64,000 bases of DNA from Escherichia coli (lineage in GTDB: Bacteria > Pseudomonadota > Gammaproteobacteria > Enterobacterales > Enterobacteriaceae): the NCBI RefSeq assembly GCF_046105845.1, contig NZ_CP151004.1, one strand, 5' to 3'. The notes below the pieces were generated by a model that was given only the letters and a program-made list of their open reading frames with translations, ran no database searches and was not told the origin of the DNA. The position numbers were made by a program, and so were the translations under genes. Below are positions 7,052 through 40,431 of the stretch, piece by piece; the first letter of the stretch is position 1, and each line of letters begins with the position of its first letter.

Positions 7052-7236
7052 ACGCCACAATTCAAACGATACCAGAGCTTCTTATCCAGACACGAGGCAA
7101 TCAGACCGAAGTGGCAAGGATGCTTTCCTGCGCAAGAGGAACAGTGCTCAAGTACAACCGAGACAGCAAAGGCGAGCGTCATGTAATAGTTAACGGCGTC
7201 CTGATGGTCAAACAGGGCAAGAGGGGAAGACGATGA
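7048..7236 (+). CDS. ninH: NinH-like protein
   Basis: 62 aa. TIPELLIQTRGNQTEVARMLSCARGTVLKY parallels lambda NinH KTIPDMLVEAYGNQTEVARRLKCSRGTVRKY. Confidence 0.8.
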   Translation: MNATIQTIPELLIQTRGNQTEVARMLSCARGTVLKYNRDSKGERHVIVNGVLMVKQGKRGRR

Positions 7237-7856
7237 GACTCGAAAGCGTAGCTAAATTTCATTCGCCAAAAAGCCCGATGATGAGCGACTCACCACGGGC
7301 TACGGCTTCTGACTCTCTTTCCGGTACTGATGTGATGGCTGCTATGGGGATGGCACAATCACAGGCCGGATTCGGGATGGCTGCATTTTGCGGTAAGCAC
7401 GAACTCAGCCAGAACGACAAACAAAAGGCTATCAACTATCTGATGCAATTTGCACACAAGGTATCGGGGAAATACCGTGGTGTGGCAAAGCTCGAAGGAA
7501 ATACTAAGGCAAAGGTACTGCAAGTGCTCGCAATATTCGCTTATGCGGATTATTGCCGTAGTGCCGCGACGCCGGGTGCAAGATGCAGAGATTGCCACGG
7601 TACAGGCCGTGCGGTTGATATAGCCAAAACGGAGCAGTGGGGGAGAGTTGTTGAGAAAGAGTGCGGAAGATGCAAAGGTGTCGGCTATTCAAGAATGCCA
7701 GCAAGCGCCGCATATCGCGCTGTAACGATGCTAATCCCAAACCTTACCCAACCCACCTGGTCACGCACTGTTAAGCCGCTGTATGACGCTCTGGTGGTGC
7801 AATGCCACAAAGAAGAGTCAATCGCAGACAATATTTTGAATGCGGTCACACGTTAG
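7233..7856 (+). CDS. Q: Late-gene antiterminator Q (lambda-type)
   Basis: 207 aa, MRLESVAKFHSPKSPMMSDSPRATASDSLSGTDVMAAMGM... It matches remembered lambda Q essentially throughout. Confidence 0.95.
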   Translation: MRLESVAKFHSPKSPMMSDSPRATASDSLSGTDVMAAMGMAQSQAGFGMAAFCGKHELSQNDKQKAINYLMQFAHKVSGKYRGVAKLEGNTKAKVLQVLAIFAYADYCRSAATPGARCRDCHGTGRAVDIAKTEQWGRVVEKECGRCKGVGYSRMPASAAYRAVTMLIPNLTQPTWSRTVKPLYDALVVQCHKEESIADNILNAVTR

Positions 7857-8289: not shown

Positions 8290-8613
8290 ATGAAGATGCC
8301 AGAAAAACATGACCTGTTAGCCGCCATTCTCGCGGCAAAGGAACAAGGCATCGGGGCAATCCTTGCGTTTGCAATGGCGTACCTTCGCGGCAGATATAAT
8401 GGCGGTGCGTTTACAAAAACAGTAATCGACGCAACGATGTGCGCCATTATCGCCTGGTTCATTCGTGACCTTCTCGACTTAGCAGGACTAAGTAGCAATC
8501 TCGCTTATATAACGAGCGTGTTCATCGGCTACATCGGTACTGACTCGATTGGTTCGCTTATCAAACGCTTCGCTGCTAAAAAAGCCGGAGTAGAAGATGG
8601 TGGAAATCAATAA
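8290..8613 (+). CDS. S: Class I holin/antiholin S (dual-start S107/S105)
   Basis: 107 aa, [39 protein letters not shown]... It matches lambda S, including the Met1-Lys2-Met3 dual start. Confidence 0.95.
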
Positions 8614-9073
8614 TCAACGTAAGGCGTTCCTCGATATGCTGGCGTGGTCAGAGGGAACAGATAACGGACGACAGAAAACCAGAAATCATGGTTATGACGT
8701 CATTGTTGGCGGAGAGCTATTCACTGATTACTCCGATCACCCTCGCAAACTTGTCACGCTAAATCCAAAACTCAAATCAACAGCAGCCGGGCGCTATCAG
8801 CTTCTTTCCCGTTGGTGGGATGCCTACCGTAAGCAGCTTGGCCTGAAAGACTTCTCTCCCAAAAGCCAGGACGCTGTTGCGCTGCAGCAGATTAAGGAAC
8901 GTGGCGCTTTGCCGATGATTGATCGCGGTGATATTCGTCAGGCTATCGACCGTTGCAGCAATATCTGGGCTTCACTGCCGGGCGCTGGCTATGGCCAGTT
9001 CGAGCATAAGGCTGACAGCCTGATTGCAAAATTCAAAGAAGTTGGCGGAACGGTCAGAGAGATTGAGGTATGA
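8597..9073 (+). CDS. R: Endolysin R (lytic transglycosylase, lambda-type)
   Basis: 158 aa, [39 protein letters not shown]... It matches lambda R. Confidence 0.95.
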
Positions 9074-9537
9074 GCAGAGTAACCGCGATTATCTCAGCTC
9101 TGGTTATCTGCATCATCGTTTGCCTGTCATGGGCTGTTAATCATTACCGTGATAACGCCATCGCCTACAAAGAACAGCGTGATAAAAAAGTCAGTGAGCT
9201 GAAGCAGGCGACCGCCACCATTACTGACATGCAGCAACGCCAGCGTGCTGCTGATGCACTCGATGCTAAATACACGAAGGAGTTAGCTGATGCGAAAGCT
9301 GAAAATGATGCTCTTCGGCGCAAGCTTGATAATGGTGGCAGGGTGCTCGTCAAAGGAAAATGCCCTGTGCCATCCTCAGCCGAAACCTCCGGCGCCTCCG
9401 GCATGGGCAATGATGCCACCGTCGAACTCTCTCCAGTTGCTGGACGAAACGTTCTCGGTGTCCGGGACGGAATTATCCGCGACCAAACAGCACTGAGAAC
9501 GCTTCAGGAATACATCAGGACGCAATGCCTTCGATGA
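9070..9537 (+). CDS. Rz: i-spanin Rz (lambda-like N-terminal half, divergent C-terminal half)
   Basis: 155 aa. [31 protein letters not shown] and [22 protein letters not shown] resemble lambda Rz. From about residue 85 on it does not. Confidence 0.9.
9290..9496 (+). CDS. Rz1: o-spanin Rz1 (embedded, +1 frame)
   Basis: Lipobox LIMVAGC followed by the proline-rich tract [11 protein letters not shown]. It lies entirely within Rz. Confidence 0.8.
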
Positions 9538-9710
9538 TAGCGATAATTTTACTCATCATCCTTCACATCTGGCTCTGTAGACAGGGTGGTGAACACTTCT
9601 GGAGTGAATCCAGATTAAACATCTCATTGCTGATGCTTGATATTGAGCATCTGGCGCGCGGTAAGGGGCTGCGTTGAGATAAGAGCCAGTCATTACAAAT
9701 ACCAGGATTT

Positions 9711-9736
9711 AGCCTCGCATTTGCGGGGCTTTTTTA
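9711..9736 (+). terminator. Rho-independent terminator
   Basis: AGCCTCGC-ATTT-GCGGGGCT followed by TTTTT. Confidence 0.7.
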
Positions 9737-9880
9737 CATCTGCAGTAAACCGCGCATCGCAGCGCGTAACAATCCCGAGTCTTTCAGAAAGCTGAGCCTG
9801 AGAACTGCCGTATATGGTGGCGACCATCTCGGGGCGGCTTTTCTGTGCGAACAGGCTCATCTTTCTAAAAGGTAAACGCT

Positions 9881-10366
9881 ATGAATAACTTTGTTGAAAT
9901 TACCTCAAGAATTGGTCGCATGTACCAAGATTTTCTTATAAGTGGAAAGGGGTCTGGCGACATCATAGAGGAAATTGACAAGCTAAGTGCAGAGCTGAGA
10001 AGGAATGGGTGTGTTAATTCTATCTTTTTTGAAACTTTGCTAAAGCAAGGCTTCATGTTTGACATGATTAATTACAACAAAGTCGCACCCAGTGCTTCGC
10101 AAAAATCATATGTGTACGTTCTGCATGCTGAAGATAGTGGGCTAACAAAAATAGGGTTTAGTCGCAGGGTTAATAAACGAATTTCAGAGATATCTCGCAT
10201 GAGTGGTGGGAAGCTAAATCTAATTGCAAAGATTCCGGCCGATAGAGAGCTTGAAACCAAATTGCACCAAAAATATTACAACTATAGGTCGCACGGGGAG
10301 TGGTTTAGTCTCAATCGTTGTCATTTGAAAGAGCTAAAAGAAATGCCTGGTAACGAACTGAAATAA
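9881..10366 (+). CDS. T5orf172 / GIY-YIG-superfamily domain protein (accessory gene)
   Basis: 161 aa. The C-terminal half YVYVLHAEDSGLTKIGFSRRVNKRISEISR...KLHQKYYNYRSHGEWFSL fits the T5orf172 (MUG113-like) pattern. The N-terminal ~65 aa are unassigned. Visibly AT-richer than flanking genes. Confidence 0.7.
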   Translation: MNNFVEITSRIGRMYQDFLISGKGSGDIIEEIDKLSAELRRNGCVNSIFFETLLKQGFMFDMINYNKVAPSASQKSYVYVLHAEDSGLTKIGFSRRVNKRISEISRMSGGKLNLIAKIPADRELETKLHQKYYNYRSHGEWFSLNRCHLKELKEMPGNELK

Positions 10367-10542
10367 TCCCCGGACTCACTAATTAACGGCAGTACAGCGA
10401 AACGACCCAAGCCAGTAAGTGGGGAAATAACACTGGCAGCCACTGAAAGATGAACCTCCTGCCTTATGGCAAAAAAGATTCTTTGTGGCGGCGGACTGAT
10501 GGAAGGACATCCTAATTTCAGCCAAACATTGAAGGAGTTGTT

Positions 10543-10614
10543 ATGTCAGCAGAAGGTTTCAATAACCCATCAAAATTCCGGGATGAGTGGGATAGCAGCG
10601 TAAAGAGTAAGTGA
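10543..10614 (+). CDS. Possible 23-aa micro-ORF
   Basis: MSAEGFNNPSKFRDEWDSSVKSK. AAGGAG lies 5 nt upstream of the ATG. There is no other support. Confidence 0.25.
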   Translation: MSAEGFNNPSKFRDEWDSSVKSK

Positions 10615-10719
10615 TGCCATCACAAAAGCCATTCCCTACAGAGTGGCTTTGATAATGGCTTATACCCTACACGGGATAACTTAACTGATATCCCTTTTAA
10701 CGGATAAACGGAGCCAACA

Positions 10720-10962
10720 ATGGCAGAGATTATTCCCATGACTGAAGAACAGAAATTCCAGTTAGAGATTTACAAACTGGTCATGAACCAGAACGCAGCC
10801 GCAGAAGAAGCATTTCAGTTCATTGGCACTGACGAACTGAAGCTTGAGCTATTCAAAATTCACTTCCAGTCAGGCGGCGCTAATTCAGATATCACGACCC
10901 GCACTATCGAAGCGGTGCGTAAATCGAAGGAAGCGTTAGACCTGTTCACTACCGGAGCATGA
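10720..10962 (+). CDS. Hypothetical 80-aa protein (same size and position as P22 orf80, from memory)
   Basis: ORF-track protein with a GGAG-type RBS (ACGGAGCCAACAATG), in the lysis-to-terminase interval. Confidence 0.6.
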   Translation: MAEIIPMTEEQKFQLEIYKLVMNQNAAAEEAFQFIGTDELKLELFKIHFQSGGANSDITTRTIEAVRKSKEALDLFTTGA

Positions 10963-10964
10963 TG

Positions 10965-11143
10965 TGAGCCGCGTAATCAATTTGGGTAAGGAGAAGAAAT
11001 TCCCAATTACTCAAGAGCTATACGAGAGGCTGGAAAGCGTCATCCATGATTACGATGGTGAAATCAGTTTATGCGAGGCGATTGGTACACTCGAATTGCT
11101 GAAGCAGTCACTGATTGAAGGCGCGAAAGAGTCCTTAACCTGA
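10965..11143 (+). CDS. Hypothetical 59-aa protein (P22 orf59a-like by size and position)
   Basis: Hand-translated from a GTG 2 nt after the previous stop: VSRVINLGKEKKFPITQELYERLESVIHDYDGEISLCEAIGTLELLKQSLIEGAKESLT. Just below the ORF-track cutoff. Confidence 0.45.
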
Positions 11144-11168
11144 AATAACGATTAAGTGAGATGAATAT

Positions 11169-11195
11169 GGCAGCACTCAACATGCTGCCTTTTAT
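11169..11195. terminator. Bidirectional hairpin terminator between convergent units
   Basis: GGCAGCA-loop-TGCTGCC with a T-run on the + strand. It sits between the + strand small ORFs and the - strand two-gene unit. Confidence 0.6.
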
Positions 11196-11206
11196 CGTTG
11201 ATTAGT

Positions 11207-11446
11207 TTAACCGCGAGCTTCACGACCGTTTTCGTCTTCAGGCACACGGAAACGCCAGTACTTGTCTGGCTTAACCCAAACGACATCATTGCCACTATCA
11301 ACTCTAAATGCATTTATAACTTTGGTTGAAAGTACTTGGTTGCCATCTGCATTTTCTTTCAGGTGCTGCTCATTACCTGTCTTTATCAGGTAATCGACAA
11401 CATCTTGTTGATAAAGGCATCTGTCAGTTACTAATGCGGACATCAT
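11207..11446 (-). CDS. Hypothetical 79-aa protein
   Basis: ORF-track protein, second gene of the reverse-strand unit. I recognise no family. Confidence 0.55.
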   Translation of the reverse strand: MMSALVTDRCLYQQDVVDYLIKTGNEQHLKENADGNQVLSTKVINAFRVDSGNDVVWVKPDKYWRFRVPEDENGREARG

Positions 11447-11490
11447 CCACTTTGTTATATCAGCAACTTTTAAATGAGACGCGCTTGGGC

Positions 11491-11703
11491 TTATGGCTTT
11501 GGGTTTGTGTCCGTTAAAGACTCTTCAGCAAAGTGTCCTTTCTCAAGTTTTTTCCCTGCAAACCATTGGCATGTGTATGTTCCAGTAAAAGAACCTCCGT
11601 ATTCGTGGATTTCGTATACAGACATCTCAGGACCGCCTGATTTCAAATATACGGAATCGCCAATTTTAAATAACGCTTTTCTTACAGTTGAAGATTTGCT
11701 CAT
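11491..11703 (-). CDS. YodC/DUF2158-like small protein
   Basis: 70 aa. FKIGDSVYLKSGGPEMSVYEI...CQWFAGKKLEKGHFAEESL parallels E. coli YodC (VKEGGPRMIVTG...CRWYDG...REAFHETEL). AAGGTGA RBS. Confidence 0.65.
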   Translation of the reverse strand: MSKSSTVRKALFKIGDSVYLKSGGPEMSVYEIHEYGGSFTGTYTCQWFAGKKLEKGHFAEESLTDTNPKP

Positions 11704-11729
11704 AACTAATCACCTTCATAAGAGAAAAC

Positions 11730-12257
11730 ATGGCACTCACCGACAAGCAAGAGATGTTCTGTCGCGAGTACCTCATCGATTTAAATGCCACGCAAGCGGC
11801 TATTCGGGCGGGGTACAGCGCAAAGACAGCTAACCGTACCGCATCCGAAAACCTGTCAAAACCTGACATCAAGTTAAGAATCTCCGAACTGAAAGCGCAA
11901 CGCAATGATCTTGTTGGTATTAATGCAGAATATGTACTTAACCGCCTTATTGAAATCGACCAGATGGATGTGCTCGACATTCTCCTGCAAAACGGTGAGT
12001 TAAAGCCCATTAAAGACTGGCCTAAGGTATGGCGCACAACGCTATCAGGAATGGATGTCGTGGAGATGGTATCCGCAGATAGTGCCGCACTTCTGAAGAA
12101 AATCAAATGGCCTGATAAGGTCAAAAACCTCGAACTTCTTGGTAAGCATGTTTCCGTTCAGGCATTTAAAGAACAAGCTTCTCACGAGCTAACCGGTAAA
12201 GACGGCGGCGCAATCCAGATTGAAACATCACCGATGAGCACTCTATTCGGAAAATGA
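11730..12257 (+). CDS. Terminase small subunit (Terminase_2-type N-terminus, Sf6 gp1-like C-terminal tail)
   Basis: 175 aa. MALTDKQEMFCREYLIDLNATQAAIRAGYSAKTA is the common P27-type TerS DNA-binding motif. The C-terminus GKDGGAIQIETSPMSTLFGK matches the remembered Sf6 gp1 tail. Confidence 0.85.
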   Translation: MALTDKQEMFCREYLIDLNATQAAIRAGYSAKTANRTASENLSKPDIKLRISELKAQRNDLVGINAEYVLNRLIEIDQMDVLDILLQNGELKPIKDWPKVWRTTLSGMDVVEMVSADSAALLKKIKWPDKVKNLELLGKHVSVQAFKEQASHELTGKDGGAIQIETSPMSTLFGK

Positions 12258-27804: not shown

Positions 27805-30144
27805 ATGACAGATTCAATAAATGCCAATGTTGTGGTAAGCATGCCTTCGCAACTCTTCACTATGGCTCGTTCTTTTAAAGCCGTAGCCAATGGCAAAATT
27901 TATATCGGTAAAATTGACACGGACCCGGTAAATCCTGAAAACCAGATTCAGGTTTATGTGGAGAACGAAGACGGTTCTCACGTTCCTGTTTCGCAACCAA
28001 TAATCATTAACGCTGCTGGATATCCGGTATATAACGGACAGATTGCCAAATTCGTTACCGTGCAAGGCCATTCTATGGCTGTTTATGATGCGTATGGTTC
28101 GCAGCAGTTCTATTTTCCGAATGTGTTGAAGTACGACCCTGATCAGTTTTCCTTGTGGGCAAAGGGAAATTTCGAAATATCAGAATACAGTCGAATAATT
28201 GATGGCGATTTTGCGTCTGGATATACTATTACCAATAGAAAACAGGTCCTTAAATACACTGATGGACTTTATTACCAATGGCTTGGTTCCCTTCCGAAAA
28301 CTGTAGCGCCAACAGAAAATCCAAATCTTAATAGTCAATGGTTATGCGTCATGGATGGTTCTAATTTCAATGATGCGATCATGTGCAGTCGCTACATTCA
28401 TAGCGGAGTTGACTGCGCATCGGTAATAAATAAATTACAAATATTATCAGAATATAAAAGGGTTCCTCTAGATTTTAGAGGTATAGATGTGATCTCGTTT
28501 AGTGGTAGTGTGCAAATTGGCGACTGGTTTCATTGGATTGGTGCAGGGAAGTCAAGTACTACTATCAGACCAATCTCACTAACAAAGCAAGACGTTGAGA
28601 ATAATGGCTTTGGCTATTACTCTTGGTTCATCCGTAAGAACCCTGACAAGGATCTATATTTTGCGATGCTGCAGGATATTTGTTTTGATGGACAATACCA
28701 AGACGGTTACGAAATAAATAACATTGCGCCGCAGAAGATTATTCGCGCATTCTGCTGGCATTTCAATAACGGTGCCATTGGTCGCAATATTACTGCTTTA
28801 AGATGTCATTTCAAAAACTGCCCACATGAAGCATGGGAAGGATACACAACTAATGGTGGAATGATTGATGGTATTAATTATTTGTATTGTTCATCAGAGG
28901 GAACAGACCCAATGCTTACCGCTGTTGGATTCAATGCATTTAAGTGTATGAATGGCTCTATTGATTCACCTGGCGAATACGGTACATATACCATTAAAAA
29001 CATCTTCAGTTTCGGCAACACTGCTTTCGGCCATCGTACATTGAATGACTTTAAGAGAGGTTGCGAAAATTGGGTTATCGATGCATGCCAAACATTCGAC
29101 ATGAACGATTGCCATCACTCTACGGATGGTTCACGCCGTGGTGTATTCCTTGCTGGCAATATCGGAATTCAAACAGGAAAATCAAAAGCAACTAAAAATT
29201 TTCTTGAAATTCAAGGAGAGAATATTGATGTTCTTGGTGGAAAGTATGTTGCTGCAGCAACCAGTGTGGCTGGCTTGGCTGGTATATTCGTGACTAATTA
29301 CTCGTATCCTTCTGAGTCTACAGACTTCCAATCACAGCACATTCGAATTAAAAATGTCTATGTCGAAAGGGTAAACAATAATGCGGTACGCATTGTCAAT
29401 GGGTATGACATCAACGTTGAAGATATCACGGCTGTTAGCTGTAACGGTGTTGGTGTATCATTCGAATTTGTGCCTGGACTAATTAGCGGAATTGACAATC
29501 AAGAGATAAAACCAAGATTTAACTCTGTAGGTAAGATCATAACTAGTTCGTGTTCAGGTGAAGTGCTTGTAGACAATAACCAAGACGTATTTATCACTGC
29601 CAATAGCCAGAATACAGGAGGTGGTTTTCGTGTTGGAAGAAGTGATGCTGTCCATAGTACTAACCCTCTACCGATGCGTTCCATAGCTGGTCATATTCTA
29701 GCTAATCAGGATAGATTTTTTCAGTCTGTTATATCTATTGCGCCAGAGAAAACAGATGCAACTACAAAGCCTGTAGGTACGCCTTATGCATTCACTCTTA
29801 ACGATAAGAATACCGCATCAGTACAGAGTTTATTAGTGGCAACACTTCGAGTAGCTCAACGAAGCGCTGTCTATGTAAGACTATGGACGTTATCAGAAAC
29901 ATCAATATCATCGGCGGTCATTTTTCGCGAATTGGATTCTACAGGTAATTCGTTATCTAATACTGCAATAAAATTATTATCTGATAATTCGTGGCTTGAG
30001 CGTCAGGCAATATATCATGTTAAAAGATCAGAATGTGTAGCTGTAGAGGTTTTTCTTGCTCCTGCTTGTGATGAACGCATGGATATTTCCTTGACAGGAA
30101 CAACTAGTTTTGCTGATGTTAGAGTAAGTAATTATCCAATCTGA
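27805..30144 (+). CDS. Tailspike (P22 gp9-type head-binding domain plus an unfamiliar receptor-binding region)
   Basis: 779 aa. Residues 1-~115 ([14 protein letters not shown]...[24 protein letters not shown]...[10 protein letters not shown]) align with the P22 gp9 N-terminus. The rest is different and AT-richer. Repetitive beta-helix-like motifs are followed by a ~150-aa C-terminal beta-sandwich-like segment. Confidence 0.9.
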
Positions 30145-30203: not shown

Positions 30204-31382
30204 TTACTGAAGTTTTCTTCTTGTGTATGTTAGTACATTAAATTTTTTAAACTTACTACACGGTGTCTCAATATATCTAAAACATAGCAATGATATAAGC
30301 GTGATAAACCCAGAGAGGATTATAATAATAGCTGAAAATACAAGGCTGTTAATTTGATTAACATAGCTAACCGGAAGTATTATTTTAAATGTTATAAAAA
30401 GTATAATGCCATGTAGAAGATACATGCTATATGTAGCTTCTCCAAAAACTTGACAGGTTTTTATCTTAAGAACTCCAAAAATATCGCATCCATTTGATAT
30501 CAGAATAAATGCAATACCACAGAGTGATATTGTTATTGGATTGTAAGGATTTGGAATTAAAAAACAAGTTACACATAAGATAACGATGACGAATAAGCTT
30601 GATAATATTTTATTGAAAGGCAAGCCGTTAGGCAGTTTGTGATTTATTTTTGCTGCCAGATAACCAAAAACAAATGATAAAATATGTATTTTTAATGATG
30701 GATAGAAAATAAAAGCAAATACACTCGCAATACTAAGAATTGTGTAAGTATTAAATTTGTCTCTTCTCATTATAAAAGCCATAAAAGGAAGAGATAAATA
30801 AAAAAACCATTCATAAACAAGTGACCACGGAACTCCGGCCATGATAAGCGACGTCTTGTGAAGACCGTTAACATCAGGCATTCCAAGGAAAGAAAAAGGA
30901 ACCCATCTCGCCATAGATATTATGAGATTGGCAATTCCTGTGTTAATTTTCCAATCAGAAACATAGAACACAATTATGAATAGTAGAGATAACGAAACCA
31001 GATACATAGGTGTTAGTCTCATTATTCTTGACCAAAATAAATCTTCCCAATTTACTGATTTATTCGAAATCAATTTCCCGAAGAACAAGAAGCCTGTAAT
31101 CATAAAAAAGAAAATAACAGCTATTTTTCCAATATTAGTATAAAATAACGAATCAGGATCAGACCAAACCCCAGTATGTATGTATTGCCACCAGAAACTG
31201 GAATGATGAAGGAAAACCATTAAAGCAAGAAATCCTCTAAGCCCATCAATTGATTCACTCCTTCCTTTGATAGGTGATAAGTGTGTTTCTGTGACAAATA
31301 TTCTTGCAACCGAAAGTGAAGTAATCACCGATAAAGAAGCAATTAAAAAGCCATTAAATCCGTCAAACATAGAAATCTCCAT
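30204..31382 (-). CDS. Acyltransferase-3 family integral membrane protein (Oac-like O-antigen acetylase candidate)
   Basis: 392 aa, about 10 TM segments. AT3 N-terminal motif IDGLRGFLALMVFLHH. Very AT-rich. It occupies the Sf6 oac position (tailspike, oac, int). The start could be 31370 (MFDG). Confidence 0.8.
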   Translation of the reverse strand: MEISMFDGFNGFLIASLSVITSLSVARIFVTETHLSPIKGRSESIDGLRGFLALMVFLHHSSFWWQYIHTGVWSDPDSLFYTNIGKIAVIFFFMITGFLFFGKLISNKSVNWEDLFWSRIMRLTPMYLVSLSLLFIIVFYVSDWKINTGIANLIISMARWVPFSFLGMPDVNGLHKTSLIMAGVPWSLVYEWFFYLSLPFMAFIMRRDKFNTYTILSIASVFAFIFYPSLKIHILSFVFGYLAAKINHKLPNGLPFNKILSSLFVIVILCVTCFLIPNPYNPITISLCGIAFILISNGCDIFGVLKIKTCQVFGEATYSMYLLHGIILFITFKIILPVSYVNQINSLVFSAIIIILSGFITLISLLCFRYIETPCSKFKKFNVLTYTRRKLQ

Positions 31383-35327: not shown

Positions 35328-36575
35328 TTAATTATCATCAAAATTAACACCCAATGCAGATAGTTGATTAATTTCATTTTGATATTTAGCCTGGCGATTT
35401 TGAAGCCTTTTTTCAACTTTATCTTCGATTTCCTTAAAGTGGTCATATTTATTTTGAGAACGGTCAACTTCGTTATCGACTAAAGTAGAAATTATTTCTT
35501 TTACATTATCGCGTCTAAATTTTGCATCGTCCACTTGAAAATTATATCTTATTGCTCGACCTAAACGTTTAAAAACTTCGTTTGGCTCTCTCAGTCTTTC
35601 CCCGTTGAGCTCGTTTACAACCTGATGATCGGAACCTGTTGCAAATGATTCTGCCATGATAGCTTTACTGCTTTCAAACCACGCTGAAGCATTCCTGGCT
35701 TTTTCACTACAATATTGGGTGAGACTATCACCATTAATACGAATTCCTCTTTGAATGTGGTAGTCGTCCTGATCATAGTAACCGAGAGATAAGTAATCAT
35801 TTCCGTTTTTATTTTTAATTACAATAGCGAGAGAATCGCCTTTTTTATCTTTACCGTACCAGGTAAATAAGTCCGTTGGTTCGCTTTTCCCATTCTCATC
35901 AAATTCCGTTATCGTATGTCTGAGTTTTTGTGATATCTTATCGAAGATAAAACCAGGATCTCCATCATATATTTCTTTTAATGCGCTGAAGATCATTTCC
36001 TTGTTATTGATATCATGAGTATTCTCTACTACATTTTCATGGATGATGGTTTGGCCGACTTTTTTGTTTTCATCGTTCGTAGGTGATTTTATTGGTTCTT
36101 GATTATAGATACCACTAGTAATATCGGCTGTATCATTGGAGTCAATAGCACCCTCATTACCACTAACAACGATACCACCATCAGTAAATTCAGTATTATT
36201 TATATCATCATGAGTCTTCTCAACTATGTTGTCATTAATGATAGCACGGACGAGTTCTTTGTCTTTATAGCTCGCAAGTAATTTTATTGTTTCTTGGTTA
36301 TCGATACCAATAGTAATATAGTCTGTATCATTGGAGCCAATATCAATATAAGTAACTGAGGAATTATTAATATTAAAACTATCAGGATTGTCGTTTCCTC
36401 GTATGGCGTTTTTTATAAGCGCAAGTAGATGTTTAACACAGGTGCTTATTCCTTCCTTACCATTAAAAAGGTTTTTGAGCTCTTGTACTAATCCATTAAC
36501 TTCATCATTGTTATTTTCATTGATAGATTCTGTGTAAGCAGCGCTGGTGTTGTTGATTGAAATAGATGGTAGCAT
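35328..36575 (-). CDS. yfdF: YfdF-position uncharacterised protein (415 aa, Asn/Asp/Ile-rich)
   Basis: Occupies the K-12 yfdF slot between mlaA and fadL. Very AT-rich, with no signal peptide or TM. The gene symbol is positional. Confidence 0.7.
   Translation of the reverse strand: MLPSISINNTSAAYTESINENNNDEVNGLVQELKNLFNGKEGISTCVKHLLALIKNAIRGNDNPDSFNINNSSVTYIDIGSNDTDYITIGIDNQETIKLLASYKDKELVRAIINDNIVEKTHDDINNTEFTDGGIVVSGNEGAIDSNDTADITSGIYNQEPIKSPTNDENKKVGQTIIHENVVENTHDINNKEMIFSALKEIYDGDPGFIFDKISQKLRHTITEFDENGKSEPTDLFTWYGKDKKGDSLAIVIKNKNGNDYLSLGYYDQDDYHIQRGIRINGDSLTQYCSEKARNASAWFESSKAIMAESFATGSDHQVVNELNGERLREPNEVFKRLGRAIRYNFQVDDAKFRRDNVKEIISTLVDNEVDRSQNKYDHFKEIEDKVEKRLQNRQAKYQNEINQLSALGVNFDDN
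36005..36345. repeat. Diverged tandem duplication (~195-bp period) inside the yfdF-like gene
   Basis: ATTTTATTGGTTCTTGATTATAGATACCACTAGTAATATCGGCTGTATCATTGGAGTCAATA (36086-) versus ATTTTATTGTTTCTTGGTTATCGATACCAATAGTAATATAGTCTGTATCATTGGAGCCAATA (36281-). The offset is 195 bp, or 65 codons. Confidence 0.8.
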
Positions 36576-36901
36576 GATTTTATTCCATGTTGATTGATTT
36601 GTTACAAATATATATTACCTAATAAAATAGACTATCAAAAAACGCTCATTTATTTAGACCCTATCTTTAATTTGAGTGTATGAGCGCACAATAGCCAGGG
36701 TGGTTTGAGTATCCTGGTAATTCAGAAAAGTAAACTCTTTGAGAAAGACGAGCAGAACGCCTGAAAATATGCCTTTCCCTTCAGGTTTGTCTGTGGATGC
36801 CACTTAATGATTTGAAAGGGCAAGCTACCATCAGGCTGTTTGCAAAACTCAGGAGGCAAGCAATGAGGAAACCACTTTCGTTGAAGTGGGGGGGGAGTTA
36901 A

Positions 36902-36924
36902 AGTCACCTGCTATGCAGGTGACT
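36902..36924 (-). terminator. fadL terminator
   Basis: Minus strand: GTCACCTGC-ATA-GCAGGTGAC followed by TTTAACT, just after the fadL stop. Confidence 0.6.
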
Positions 36925-36944
36925 TTAACTAAGCTAACGCGTTA

Positions 36945-38291
36945 TCAGAACGCGTAGTTAAAGTTAGTACCGAACAGCCAGGCTTTACCTTCAGACTCGA
37001 AGGAATAAGCTGCCGGTCCTTCACCTTCAGTAAACTTCACTTTCTGACCATGCATATAAGATGCGCCAACGTCAATGGATGCATCTTCATTAAATGCGTA
37101 GGTTAACCCAGCACTTAACCACAAGCGATCCTGGTCAGGAATGGAAATAGAACGTTTATCTGCCGGAACTGGGCTATCGTCATAGGCGATACCGGTACGG
37201 AAGGTCCAGTTTTTATCGTAATAGTAGGTTGTGCCCAACGCGATACGATATGCGTCACGGAATCCTTCATCTTTATAGAACAGAGTCTGGCCACTATCGC
37301 CTTTCGCTTTCAACTCCTGGAACTGGCTCCAACTGGTATAGGCCATGCTGTAGTGAATTGCCCACTGCGGCGCAACACGGTTATAACCAGAAATCTCCCA
37401 CATCTCAGGCAGGTTGAGCGTCAGGGAGCCATTTTGTGTTGCACCCATCGTGCCATACGGTAAGCCCATGCTACCCAAAATATTGTTCAGATTTGGGTTA
37501 ATGGAACTTTTGTAATCCCCTTCGAAGTCGATTTTAACTTCTGAACGATATGTCAGGCCCCAACGGTTATCTTTATCCAGTTCATAAAGAATACCCGCGT
37601 TCCAGCCGAAGCCCCATTCGTCACCTTTCAGATGGGCAATTTGAGAGTCCGGAGTATTAATACCATTGGTTAATGAAGCGGGTACACCCCGGGCAATCAA
37701 CTGCTGAGACAACATAGGCCCCAGCGAACCGGCGTAACGCTCAATTTTTGCTTTGGCGTAAACCGCATCAAAACCAAGACCAAAACTCCAGCTATTGTTA
37801 AGGCGATAAGCCCCGCTAAGGTTAAGGTTGATTGTCTGCAGATCGGTTTTACCGCCATAGATACCAGCAGCGTAGTTGTCGGTAAATTCCGTAGCCAGGC
37901 CGTAGTTGGAAGTTATTGACGCTCCCCAACCAAACTGATCGTTGATAGGCGCGACAAAGTGCAGGTTAGGTACCCACGCTGTCGGTGCGATATTTTTAGC
38001 ATTTGCACTCTGACCGGTTAAATCAGAATGTCCGGTAATATCTACATCCGGATCAATATAAACCGCACCCGCAGAAAATGTCGGGCGGTCAAACATGGTA
38101 ATCAATGCGGGGTTACGGCTAACGTTACCTGCATCATCGGCAATTGCGCCTTCCCCTGAATAAGCCCGGCCCAGGCCAGAGGAAGAAAATTCGTTTAACT
38201 GAAAGCCTGCCGACCAGACCTGGGTGGAGATAAGTGCCACTGCGACTGCGAGAGCAGACTTTGTAAACAGGGTTTTCTGGCTCATGACCAT
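36945..38291 (-). CDS. fadL: Long-chain fatty acid outer-membrane transporter FadL (divergent allele)
   Basis: 448 aa. N-terminus [24 protein letters not shown] and C-terminus [14 protein letters not shown] as in K-12 FadL. The central loops differ. Confidence 0.95.
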
Positions 38292-38370
38292 AACCTCAAT
38301 GATTTATTTTTATACAAACTATGTTACGTGCTGTAACAGGAGCGCGAAGTGTAGGGTCTGAGGTACATCT

Positions 38371-38411
38371 TAGAAATCAGACCAGTGGCGAGAGTATAGG
38401 TCGGACCAGCT
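38371..38411. promoter_or_regulatory. Two FadR operators in the fadL promoter
   Basis: Reverse complements read AGCTGGTCCGACCTATA (38395-38411) and CACTGGTCTGATTTCTA (38371-38387), matching the FadR consensus (ANCTGGTCNGACCTGTT). Confidence 0.75.
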
Positions 38412-38656
38412 GGAATGTTGCAAGTATGTTTCTATCTTTTTTCAAATATGATCTAAGAAACGCGATCCAGCTGGCAAAATTTGGAGGTGGCGCACTCATG
38501 GATTCGGGTGAATTTTGTCTTAGATCATTTTTAAGTGTGATTTCGGTCACTTATCCGATTTTGCAGAATTAACAACTGGAGCAGCACTTTCCGGAAGCGT
38601 AAAATATCCACAACGTTTATCTGGCACCTTGGGTGCACATACAGAGGAAATCAACG

Positions 38657-38941
38657 ATGAGTAAATGTAGTGCTGATGAAACCCCGGTTTGCTGCTGTAT
38701 GGATGTTGGCACCATTATGGACAACTCCGACTGCACCGCGTCTTACAGCCGCGTGTTTGCAAACCGCGCAGAAGCAGAACAAACGCTGGCGGCGCTGACT
38801 GAAAAAGCCCGTAGCGTGGAATCCGAACCGTGCAAAATCACCCCGACTTTCACTGAAGAGTCTGACGGTGTGCGCCTGGATATCGATTTCACTTTTGCCT
38901 GCGAAGCTGAAATGCTGATCTTCCAGCTGGGTCTGCGTTAA
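38657..38941 (+). CDS. yfcZ: YfcZ (UPF0381 family)
   Basis: 94 aa from MSKCSADETPVCCCMDVGTIMDNSDC. Matches remembered K-12 YfcZ. Confidence 0.9.
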   Translation: MSKCSADETPVCCCMDVGTIMDNSDCTASYSRVFANRAEAEQTLAALTEKARSVESEPCKITPTFTEESDGVRLDIDFTFACEAEMLIFQLGLR

Positions 38942-38959
38942 TTCCTCTCGGGTACGTAT

Positions 38960-38994
38960 GCCCCTGTCAGTTGTTGGCAGGGGCGTTTTATTTT
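38960..38994 (+). terminator. yfcZ terminator
   Basis: GCCCCTG-loop-CAGGGGC followed by GTTTTATTTT. Confidence 0.8.
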
Positions 38995-39077
38995 CTTTCT
39001 CCTGTCTTCACTGTGTCATAGCTCCCACTTTCCTTTTTCTCCGCTTGGCTAAATGTAAAAAAATGGTTAAGAATATG

Positions 39078-39094
39078 ATCAGGTCAGACCACTT
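39078..39094. promoter_or_regulatory. FadR operator upstream of fadIJ
   Basis: ATCAGGTCAGACCACTT fits the FadR consensus. It lies 27 nt upstream of the fadI ATG region. Confidence 0.65.
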
Positions 39095-39120
39095 TATATC
39101 TTTTTTTACAGGGGAGTGTT

Positions 39121-40431
39121 ATGGGTCAGGTTTTACCGCTGGTTACCCGCCAGGGCGATCGTATCGCCATTGTTAGCGGTTTACGTACGCCTTTTGCCCG
39201 CCAGGCGACGGCTTTTCATGGCATTCCCGCGGTTGATTTAGGGAAGATGGTGGTAGGCGAACTACTGGCACGCAGCGAAATTCCCGCCGAAGTGATTGAA
39301 CAACTGGTCTTTGGTCAGGTCGTACAAATGCCGGAAGCCCCCAACATTGCGCGTGAAATTGTTCTCGGTACTGGAATGAATGTGCATACCGATGCTTACA
39401 GCGTCAGCCGCGCTTGCGCTACCAGTTTCCAGGCGGTTGCAAACGTCGCAGAAAGCCTGATGGCGGGAACTATTCGCGCGGGGATTGCCGGTGGGGCCGA
39501 TTCCTCTTCCGTATTGCCAATTGGCGTCAGTAAAAAACTGGCGCGCGTGCTGGTTGATGTCAACAAAGCTCGAACCATGAGCCAGCGCCTGAAACTCTTC
39601 TCTCGCCTGCGTTTGCGCGACTTAATGCCGGTGCCTCCGGCAGTGGCGGAATACTCTACTGGCTTGCGGATGGGCGACACCGCTGAACAAATGGCGAAAA
39701 CCTACGGTATTACTCGCGAACAGCAAGATGCATTAGCGCACCGTTCGCATCAGCGAGCCGCTCAGGCGTGGTCAGACGGTAAACTCAAAGAAGAGGTGAT
39801 GACTGCCTTTATCCCTCCTTATAAACAACCGCTTGCCGAAGACAACAATATTCGCGGTAATTCCTCGCTTGCTGATTACGCAAAGTTGCGTCCGGCGTTT
39901 GATCGTAAACACGGGACGGTAACGGCAGCAAACAGTACGCCGCTGACCGATGGCGCAGCGGCGGTGATCCTGATGACCGAATCGCGGGCGAAAGAATTAG
40001 GGCTGGTACCGCTGGGGTATCTGCGCAGTTACGCATTTACTGCGATAGATGTCTGGCAGGACATGTTGCTCGGTCCGGCCTGGTCAACGCCGCTGGCGCT
40101 GGAACGTGCCGGTTTGACAATGAGCGATCTGACATTGCTCGATATGCACGAAGCCTTTGCAGCTCAGACACTGGCGAATATTCAGTTGCTGGGTAGTGAA
40201 CGTTTTGCTCGTGATGTACTGGGGCGTGCACATGCCACTGGCGAAGTGGACGATAGCAAATTTAACGTGCTTGGCGGTTCGATTGCTTACGGGCATCCCT
40301 TCGCGGCGACCGGCGCACGGATGATTACCCAGACATTGCATGAACTTCGCCGTCGCGGCGGTGGATTTGGTTTAGTTACCGCCTGTGCTGCCGGTGGGCT
40401 TGGCGCGGCAATGGTTGTGGAGGCGGAATAA
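39121..40431 (+). CDS. fadI: 3-ketoacyl-CoA thiolase FadI
   Basis: 436 aa, thiolase motifs. Synteny with fadJ. Confidence 0.95.

Follow-up and report, generated by a model that had tools for sequence, protein, structure and literature searches.

Free-standing genes for proteins with a C-terminal T5orf172 domain are known from ICP1 and from T5-like phages, in which T5orf172 homing genes commonly lie near terminase genes (35% of neighborhoods; PMC10448857). One of the ICP1 proteins, Odn (Gp88), is an active nuclease although it lacks the His or Tyr four residues after the conserved Arg, and it is inactivated by the E180A substitution (PMC8263062). T5orf172 has also been linked historically to the Bro-N and KilA-N domains (PMC8096241; PMC10111431). 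Here we consider a stretch of 64,000 nucleotides from Escherichia coli (assembly GCF_046105845.1, contig NZ_CP151004.1), referred to below as the window, in which a P22-like (Lederbergvirus-type) prophage in the chromosome carries an open reading frame (ORF) of 161 amino acids (aa) at 9881-10366 on the plus strand, between the lysis and the packaging genes. Judged by its sequence, this ORF represents, in an Escherichia prophage, the gp68 family of phage epsilon34 (phrog_4284). Its product falls in the GIY-YIG superfamily, within the T5orf172/MUG113 branch, and we refer to it as gp68. It is an already annotated accessory gene and does not represent a new kind of system. What goes beyond the existing annotation is that its N-terminal domain is a module of the HkbL family, and that the gene is part of a system of cassettes, delimited by a common leader and trailer, to which the Rha and KilA-N/HkbL genes also belong.

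The protein is 100% identical to epsilon34 gp68 (YP_002533529), to g341c gp64 and to a protein of phage NM-3, as determined by tblastn, and its E. coli entry in RefSeq (WP_001058931.1) is named "GIY-YIG nuclease family protein." Based on these identical proteins and the RefSeq naming, the gene must be regarded as already catalogued. The phrog_4284 profile, which has no assigned function, matches the full length of the protein at 1e-75, and a scan with NCBIfam gave no match to it. In the paper on the epsilon34 genome there is no mention of gene 68 or of its slot, and we found no functional study of a gp68 family gene in the literature. The likeness to epsilon34 and g341c extends beyond the protein, as the coding sequences (CDS) are 99.8-100% identical in nucleotides and the terminator, leader, trailer and neighbors are the same. 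The prophage in the window differs from epsilon34 in the central segment of Rz and in the packaging module, whereas the gene itself has no substantive difference. Of 5426 complete E. coli genomes, 55 carry the region at ≥99% identity, and the records listed use the identical RefSeq name; relative to the 1277 E. coli genomes with a match to the region, the gene is likewise present in 55. Among phages, a near-identical gene occurs in five of the 270 records that hold the leader or the trailer, some of them from phages, epsilon34 and g341c among them, that were isolated as virions. The gene is single-copy, with no paralog found in the window. One further candidate (P0014), which joins the N-terminus of Rz to the C-terminus of gp68, resembles a chimera produced by assembly or recombination and was excluded.

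The original prediction had assigned the C-terminal half of the protein to the T5orf172/GIY-YIG type from its motifs, and proposed a Pfam scan as a check. All of the motifs are present (YVYVL at residues 77-81, TKIGFS at 89-94, R100, H129 and EWF at 140-142), and the scan matched both MUG113 (PF13455; 50.1 bits against a gathering cut-off of 22.3, E=4e-13, aa 90-154) and T5orf172 (PF10544; 39.2 bits against a cut-off of 20, E=1e-9, aa 77-154). The precomputed Pfam labels on gp68 homologs agree with this assignment. The domain is encoded by 10085-10366 (aa 69-161 plus the stop codon), and nearly all of the 5717 clusters recovered at E≤1e-3 in an exhaustive HMMER search cover only aa 70-155. A model of the C-terminal domain alone has the beta-beta-alpha-beta-alpha core fold of GIY-YIG and matches GIY-YIG nucleases, with SLX1 the best, followed by I-TevI (6.0 vs. 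5.0), and with UPF0213, R.Eco29kI, UvrC and T4 EndoII at lower ranks in the same list. The full-length model had no match at E<0.5 in a Foldseek search of the PDB, and a search of PDB sequences with the family profile returned nothing significant, the best relevant match being UPF0213 (1zg2, E=0.14). The likeness to SLX1 and I-TevI lies in a common fold and in a corresponding Tyr and Arg core; the identity is only 11-18%, the second Tyr is a Lys in gp68, and the partner domains are different.

Nine residues of this domain (Y79, K90, G92, R100, E125, H129 and E140-W141-F142) are invariant in 77 diverse homologs, and conservation reaches 90% or more of them at I91, R136 and G139. A profile alignment to I-TevI by hhalign, which aligned only the first half of the domain, equates Y79 with Y6, K90 with Y17, G92 with G19 and R100 with R27, the Lys at the position of Y17 being typical of T5orf172. 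E125 is situated in the helix that follows strand 3, the location of E75 in I-TevI, while E140 is part of the EWF motif. From these positions E125 is our preferred candidate for the metal-binding catalytic Glu (E75 in I-TevI, E180 in Odn), though E140 is equally invariant, and the candidate active site comprises Y79, K90, R100, E125, H129 and E140. The His or Tyr four residues after the Arg is absent from gp68, as it is from Odn. Since the core Tyr and Arg are intact, the candidate Glu residues are invariant and Odn is active without that His or Tyr, the catalytic residues cannot be considered missing from gp68.

The N-terminal domain (9881-10084; aa 1-68), which is an acidic three-helix bundle, had been taken for a novel domain of no recognized family. 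This view did not survive comparison, as the domain has 33% identity over 55 residues to HkbL of phage HK620 (blastp, E=5e-12), with all three helices aligned, and residues 2-60 match phrog_875 at E=1.4e-6. HkbL is itself an 85-aa, full-length member of phrog_875 (3e-54) and matches phrog_4284 reciprocally at 4e-6. By sequence, therefore, the N-terminal domain is a homolog of HkbL and of phrog_875. A profile search with this domain of 5.8 billion proteins yielded 154 at E≤0.01, nearly all of them stand-alone proteins of ~85 aa from Enterobacteriaceae, and the fusion to T5orf172 was the only other real architecture among the 154. HK620 HkbL is a separate protein that has a basic Lys/Arg tail, is encoded after the gene for HkbK (KilA-N plus ORF11CD3), and has no nuclease domain, yet the HkbK/HkbL pair has the same slot, leader and trailer as gp68. 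A recent fusion derived from an HK620-type hkbL was considered and ruled out by the amino acid identity of only 33% and by GC contents of 36% in the N-terminal domain and 54% in hkbL.

Genes of the HkbL family (~85 aa, with the basic tail) were also seen directly after a KilA-N or antirepressor-type gene in other phages. These pairs were located in HK620 (locus L002, 2381-3132), mEp235 (L012, 707-1758) and Klebsiella phage RAH1 (L013, 1307-2055), and in both HK620 and RAH1 the HkbL gene and the one before it have a 4-bp overlap. In RAH1 the pair lies among tail genes, and for this reason the KilA-N/HkbL pair appears to be mobile as a unit of two genes.

The boundaries of the cassette were determined by pairwise blastn of positions 9000-11800 against ten related loci. 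To the left of the gene there is an intrinsic terminator at 9711-9736 (plus strand), with an 8-bp GC-rich stem at 9711-9730 and, after it, a run of T that reaches 9736, and the homologous site is an annotated terminator in epsilon34 (where it is called rho-independent), HK106 and mEp235. This terminator is the left edge of the variable region. It is followed by a 144-bp leader (9737-9880) that ends at the Shine-Dalgarno sequence (AAGG, 8-11 nucleotides 5' of the ATG start codon), by the gene itself, and by a 150-bp trailer (10367-10516) that doubles as the spacer between this position, slot A, and a second one, slot B (10517-10618). The 161-aa ORF, its location after Rz/Rz1 and the terminator were all as originally predicted, and the comparison with relatives, which had been suggested as a means of defining the insertion junctions, places the edges at the ATG and at the stop codon.

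In HK620, slot A holds hkbK followed by hkbL, with homology to the window extending on the left to 9885, so that the leader is common, and resuming at 10377. The left homology also extends to 9885 in Sf101 and CUS-3, where Rha (pRha plus ORF11CD3) occupies the slot and homology resumes at 10364, in the stop codon. HK106 has a 32% identical protein, gp64, with homology to 9885 through a leader of 84% identity and again from 10377 through a trailer of 95% identity. By contrast, Huey and Kapi1 have a Tad2-like gene (PF11195) with its own leader, homology ending at 9736 and resuming at 10376-10378, and in Sf6 and 611R6 slot A is empty and the leader is missing too (left homology to 9699, resuming at 10386). 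The whole accessory region is absent from mEp460, in which homology to 9734 joins directly to that from 10615. P22 and BTP1 have rha 5' of the same trailer, and in P22 rha lies between Rz/Rz1 and ORF80. These junctions and the P22 trailer bear out the earlier placement of the gene: its slot, situated between lysis and packaging genes, is variable and in P22 is taken by rha. The P22 Rha (orf201) and the other Rha cassettes have the slot and trailer of gp68, and in Sf101 and CUS-3 the leader as well, but Rha is an unrelated protein. Henthorn and Friedman are said to have reported in 1995 that the rha genes of P22 and phi80 inhibit phage growth in hosts deficient in IHF.

The sharpness of the blastn junctions indicates that three unrelated units, Rha, KilA-N plus HkbL, and HkbL-T5orf172, have one leader, which extends to ATGAA, and one trailer. 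Our alignments therefore show that the CDS is an exchangeable cassette, with exchange via the common flanks. There are two variants of the leader and they do not follow the type of cassette. The leader is predicted to fold into a long imperfect hairpin at ~9781-9872 (z=-2.8), the 3' arm of which overlaps the Shine-Dalgarno sequence; no compensatory changes were seen in the hairpin, the leaders being too alike to test the pairing. Rfam gave nothing at or near the gathering level in 9400-10800. The sequence of the leader is highly conserved across phages, Stx phages included. Part of the trailer is annotated in epsilon34 as a remnant of ST64T orf118. Slot B is unfilled in the window, where it appears as a gap in homology to Sf6, Huey and 611R6, and in those three phages it is filled by a Phage_gp49_66 gene (PF13876). 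The Tad2-like (Thoeris anti-defense 2-like) genes were located at 2230-2730 in the Huey locus (L004) and at 1060-1581 in that of Kapi1 (L006); the Huey gene is labelled "anti-CRISPR," as is the Phage_gp49_66 gene in slot B of the same phage.

A minus-strand ORF of 55 aa at 9693-9860, mostly within the leader, has no family matches and was judged to be spurious because the MVATI motif arises on both strands from a near-palindrome.

The position after Rz and before the terminase genes is kept by diverged alleles of gp68, both those in loci L014 and L016 (58-62% identical) and HK106 gp64 (32%), even though the phages that carry them have different holins, lysozymes and terminases. HK106 gp64 and the metagenomic alleles (P0008-P0012) have the two-domain architecture, the leader (84-93%) and, in HK106, the trailer (95%), although their protein identities to gp68 are only 32% and 58-62%, respectively, and they belong to siphoviruses or other lambdoid phages with other lysis and terminase modules. 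A 40%-identical relative (L017) is in a different neighborhood, with no lysis or terminase domains recorded there. Comparison with the L014 allele gave proportions of nonsynonymous and synonymous differences (pN and pS) of 0.27 and 0.72, the latter saturated, and a dN/dS of ~0.14, with both domains similarly constrained, from which we conclude that the gene is under purifying selection. The leader is still 93% identical beside the 62%-identical L016 allele, whose synonymous sites are saturated.

Over a shorter timescale, the CDS of the window, epsilon34 and E. coli 13KWH46 have 0-1 differences in 486 nucleotides (99.8-100%), while the trailers are 97-98% identical, the ends of Rz 98-98.6% identical, and the central parts of Rz non-homologous. 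This pattern fits a recent lateral spread of this allele between Salmonella phage and Escherichia prophages. The gene had been described as richer in AT than its neighbors, and its GC content is indeed 38.9%, compared to 50.8% in the lysis genes, ~46.6% in the prophage and 51.2% in the TerL gene. It is also the lowest among the cassettes of the slot, as other T5orf172 alleles have 42-44% GC and the Rha, KilA-N, HkbL and Tad2-like genes 43.5-54%.

With regard to function, we tentatively favor the reading that gp68 is an accessory endonuclease, made late and acting on DNA in a selfish or conflict role, although we would put this at slightly under an even chance. Expression late in the lytic cycle from the Q-antiterminated transcript is most likely, because the gene has no promoter of its own, a scan of the leader having found no sigma-70 promoter-like site, and lies after the terminator and 3' of Q, PR' and the lysis genes in the same orientation. 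The alternative cassettes (Rha, KilA-N plus HkbL, and HkbL-T5orf172) recombine into a single site of the lambdoid late operon via their common leader and trailer. In the mechanism that we envisage, read-through of the terminator mediated by Q would place gp68 on the late transcript. The basic C-terminal domain would bind DNA and cleave it in a Mg2+-dependent manner, while the helical N-terminal domain would serve in oligomerization or partner binding and would not read sequence. The enzyme might attack recombination intermediates, or DNA that belongs to satellites or to relatives residing in the same cell or co-infecting it, and repair through the conserved flanks might lead to a homing-like spread of the cassette.

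Several observations are consistent with this reading, namely the sporadic distribution of the gene, the near-identical copies in Salmonella and Escherichia, the proximity to the terminase genes, and the precedent of Odn. Sporadic presence together with near-identical copies in otherwise diverged genomes is a feature of homing genes, and gp68 has it. By analogy, the predicted nuclease would most closely resemble in its working the T5orf172 nuclease genes that stand alone in ICP1 and in T5-like phages. Like gp68, Odn and the other T5orf172 homing genes of these phages have a C-terminal T5orf172 domain with the conserved Arg and Glu and without the His or Tyr in helix 1, and they are free-standing phage genes, often near terminase genes; for Odn, nuclease activity has been shown. 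However, they have sequence-specific DNA-binding domains (RepA_N, or the zinc fingers CapR, DUF723 and DUF4397) where gp68 has an acidic helical bundle, and they are present in multiple copies in lytic phages, while gp68 is a single-copy gene of temperate phages. Three points weigh against the selfish or conflict reading: no separate sequence-specific DNA-recognition domain was found in gp68; no direct junction of leader and trailer, which would represent an empty target, was found among the 60 rows listed for records with both elements, the smallest span being 776 bp; and the frequency of the gene is low. We have not filed gp68 as a homing endonuclease gene because it has no dedicated DNA-recognition domain and its architecture is atypical.

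The alternative that survives best, though we consider it doubtful, is that gp68 is a regulator of the Bro-network type, non-catalytic or only incidentally catalytic, which does the same job as Rha and KilA-N/HkbL, for example as an antirepressor-like or transcription-modulating protein. It would act on the host or on other prophages, with T5orf172 as the DNA-binding module and the HkbL-like domain as the shared partner-binding module. The slot, leader and start context that gp68 has in common with the Rha (pRha plus ORF11CD3) and KilA-N plus ORF11CD3 genes are as such a regulator would have, as is the homology of its N-terminal domain to HkbL, whose gene has 4 bp in common with the KilA-N gene in HK620 and directly follows that gene in mEp235 and the Klebsiella phage. 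Domain swapping is, moreover, extensive among Bro-network proteins (PMC10111431). However, genes of one slot need not have one function, as Tad2-like genes are found there too, and the Pfam scan of gp68 detected MUG113 and T5orf172 only, with no Bro-N, KilA-N, pRha, ORF11CD3 or ANT domain. In addition, the invariance of Y79, R100, E125, H129 and E140 in 77 homologs would be unexpected for a derivative that purely binds DNA.

It is unlikely that gp68 is instead a resolvase or debranching enzyme, an endonuclease specific for DNA structure that trims branched intermediates of replication and recombination just before packaging as an accessory alternative to Rap/NinG or RusA. Such a role has been proposed for T5orf172 by the Aravind group (PMC7824862) and would agree with SLX1 as the best structural match, but the margin of SLX1 over I-TevI is small (6.0 vs. 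5.0), most relatives lack the gene and have unrelated genes in its place, and epsilon34 already has NinG/Rap. We regard as quite improbable a further proposal, in which the HkbL-like domain would be a common adaptor that joins DNA-acting heads (KilA-N/ORF11CD3 in trans, T5orf172 in cis) to a shared target or partner. Together with the conserved structured leader this would make a plug-and-play conflict cassette for the late operon of enterobacterial lambdoid phages, with a nuclease that, by analogy with ICP1 Odn, might be directed against a satellite, a host defense locus or a prophage in competition.

Finally, an anti-phage defense or superinfection-exclusion nuclease that is expressed in the lysogen and cuts incoming DNA is very improbable, mainly because the leader has no promoter-like site that we could find and the defense link raised in the original prediction gained no credible PADLOC match (the best, PDC-S57 at E=4e-4 and 18 bits, is confined to the nuclease domain, aa 74-145, and falls well short of the full length; neighboring ORFs have no credible match and there are no partner genes), and further in that NCBIfam gives nothing, the same slot houses phage-serving anti-defense (Tad2-like) and regulator genes, and the gene is in phages isolated as virions.

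The remaining features of the late region are all on the plus strand unless noted. The Q antiterminator gene (PF03589) is at 7233-7856, the holin gene at 8290-8613, and an ORF assigned to the endolysin by its position in the late operon at 8597-9073. The latter had no Pfam match at E≤1; its length, 158 aa, is that of the annotated endolysins of epsilon34, HK620 and Sf6. Rz (9070-9537; Phage_lysis, E=5e-29) has Rz1 (9290-9496; PF06085) embedded in it and is overlapped at its end by a 50-aa ORF at 9525-9677 (phrog_11822, E=2e-37). This small ORF sits in the interval covered by the original prediction, which did not mention it. It belongs to the family of epsilon34 gp67 and Sf6 gp65, has a hydrophobic N-terminus and annotated homologs in epsilon34, Sf6, Sf101 and Kapi1, and is part of the context, outside the exchangeable cassette. 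Beyond slot B there are a DUF2560 (hkbM-like) gene at 10720-10962 and an hkbN-like gene at 10964-11143, and the small terminase and TerL genes start at 11730 and 12254, respectively.

Homology to HK620 stops at 11171, and between the hkbN-like gene and the small terminase gene there is a second small insertion (11172-11729) with two minus-strand ORFs, one for a DUF6953 protein (11207-11446; 79 aa, E=1e-16) and one for a DUF2158 protein (11491-11703; 70 aa, E=4e-15). The 591-bp segment had no megablast match in 50,697 phage records, and the insertion may be an independent moron of two genes. Elsewhere in the window, a 392-aa Acyl_transf_3 protein (30204-31382, minus strand; E=2e-28) is probably an O-antigen acetyltransferase, i.e., the product of a lysogenic conversion gene. 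It adjoins a 779-aa ORF (27805-30144), which we take to be the tailspike gene. The chromosomal flank at 36-40 kb of the window, with fadL-fadI-yfcZ, matches 5425 of the 5426 E. coli genomes. The identity of this flank (36000-40000) to complete E. coli genomes never exceeds 98.5% and for most of them is only 90-95%, and the host may be of a divergent Escherichia lineage.

If gp68 proves to be active as a nuclease, well-studied temperate phages (epsilon34, HK106 and P22-like E. coli prophages) would contain a compact T5orf172 enzyme that has no zinc-finger or helix-turn-helix reader, and this would be a convenient setting in which to study how minimal GIY-YIG proteins locate their substrates. 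The slot itself shows cleanly how, in nature, one gene replaces another within the late operons of lambdoid phages. Its occupants, Rha, KilA-N/HkbL, HkbL-T5orf172 and the Tad2-like proteins, mark it as a place in which to seek conflict genes.
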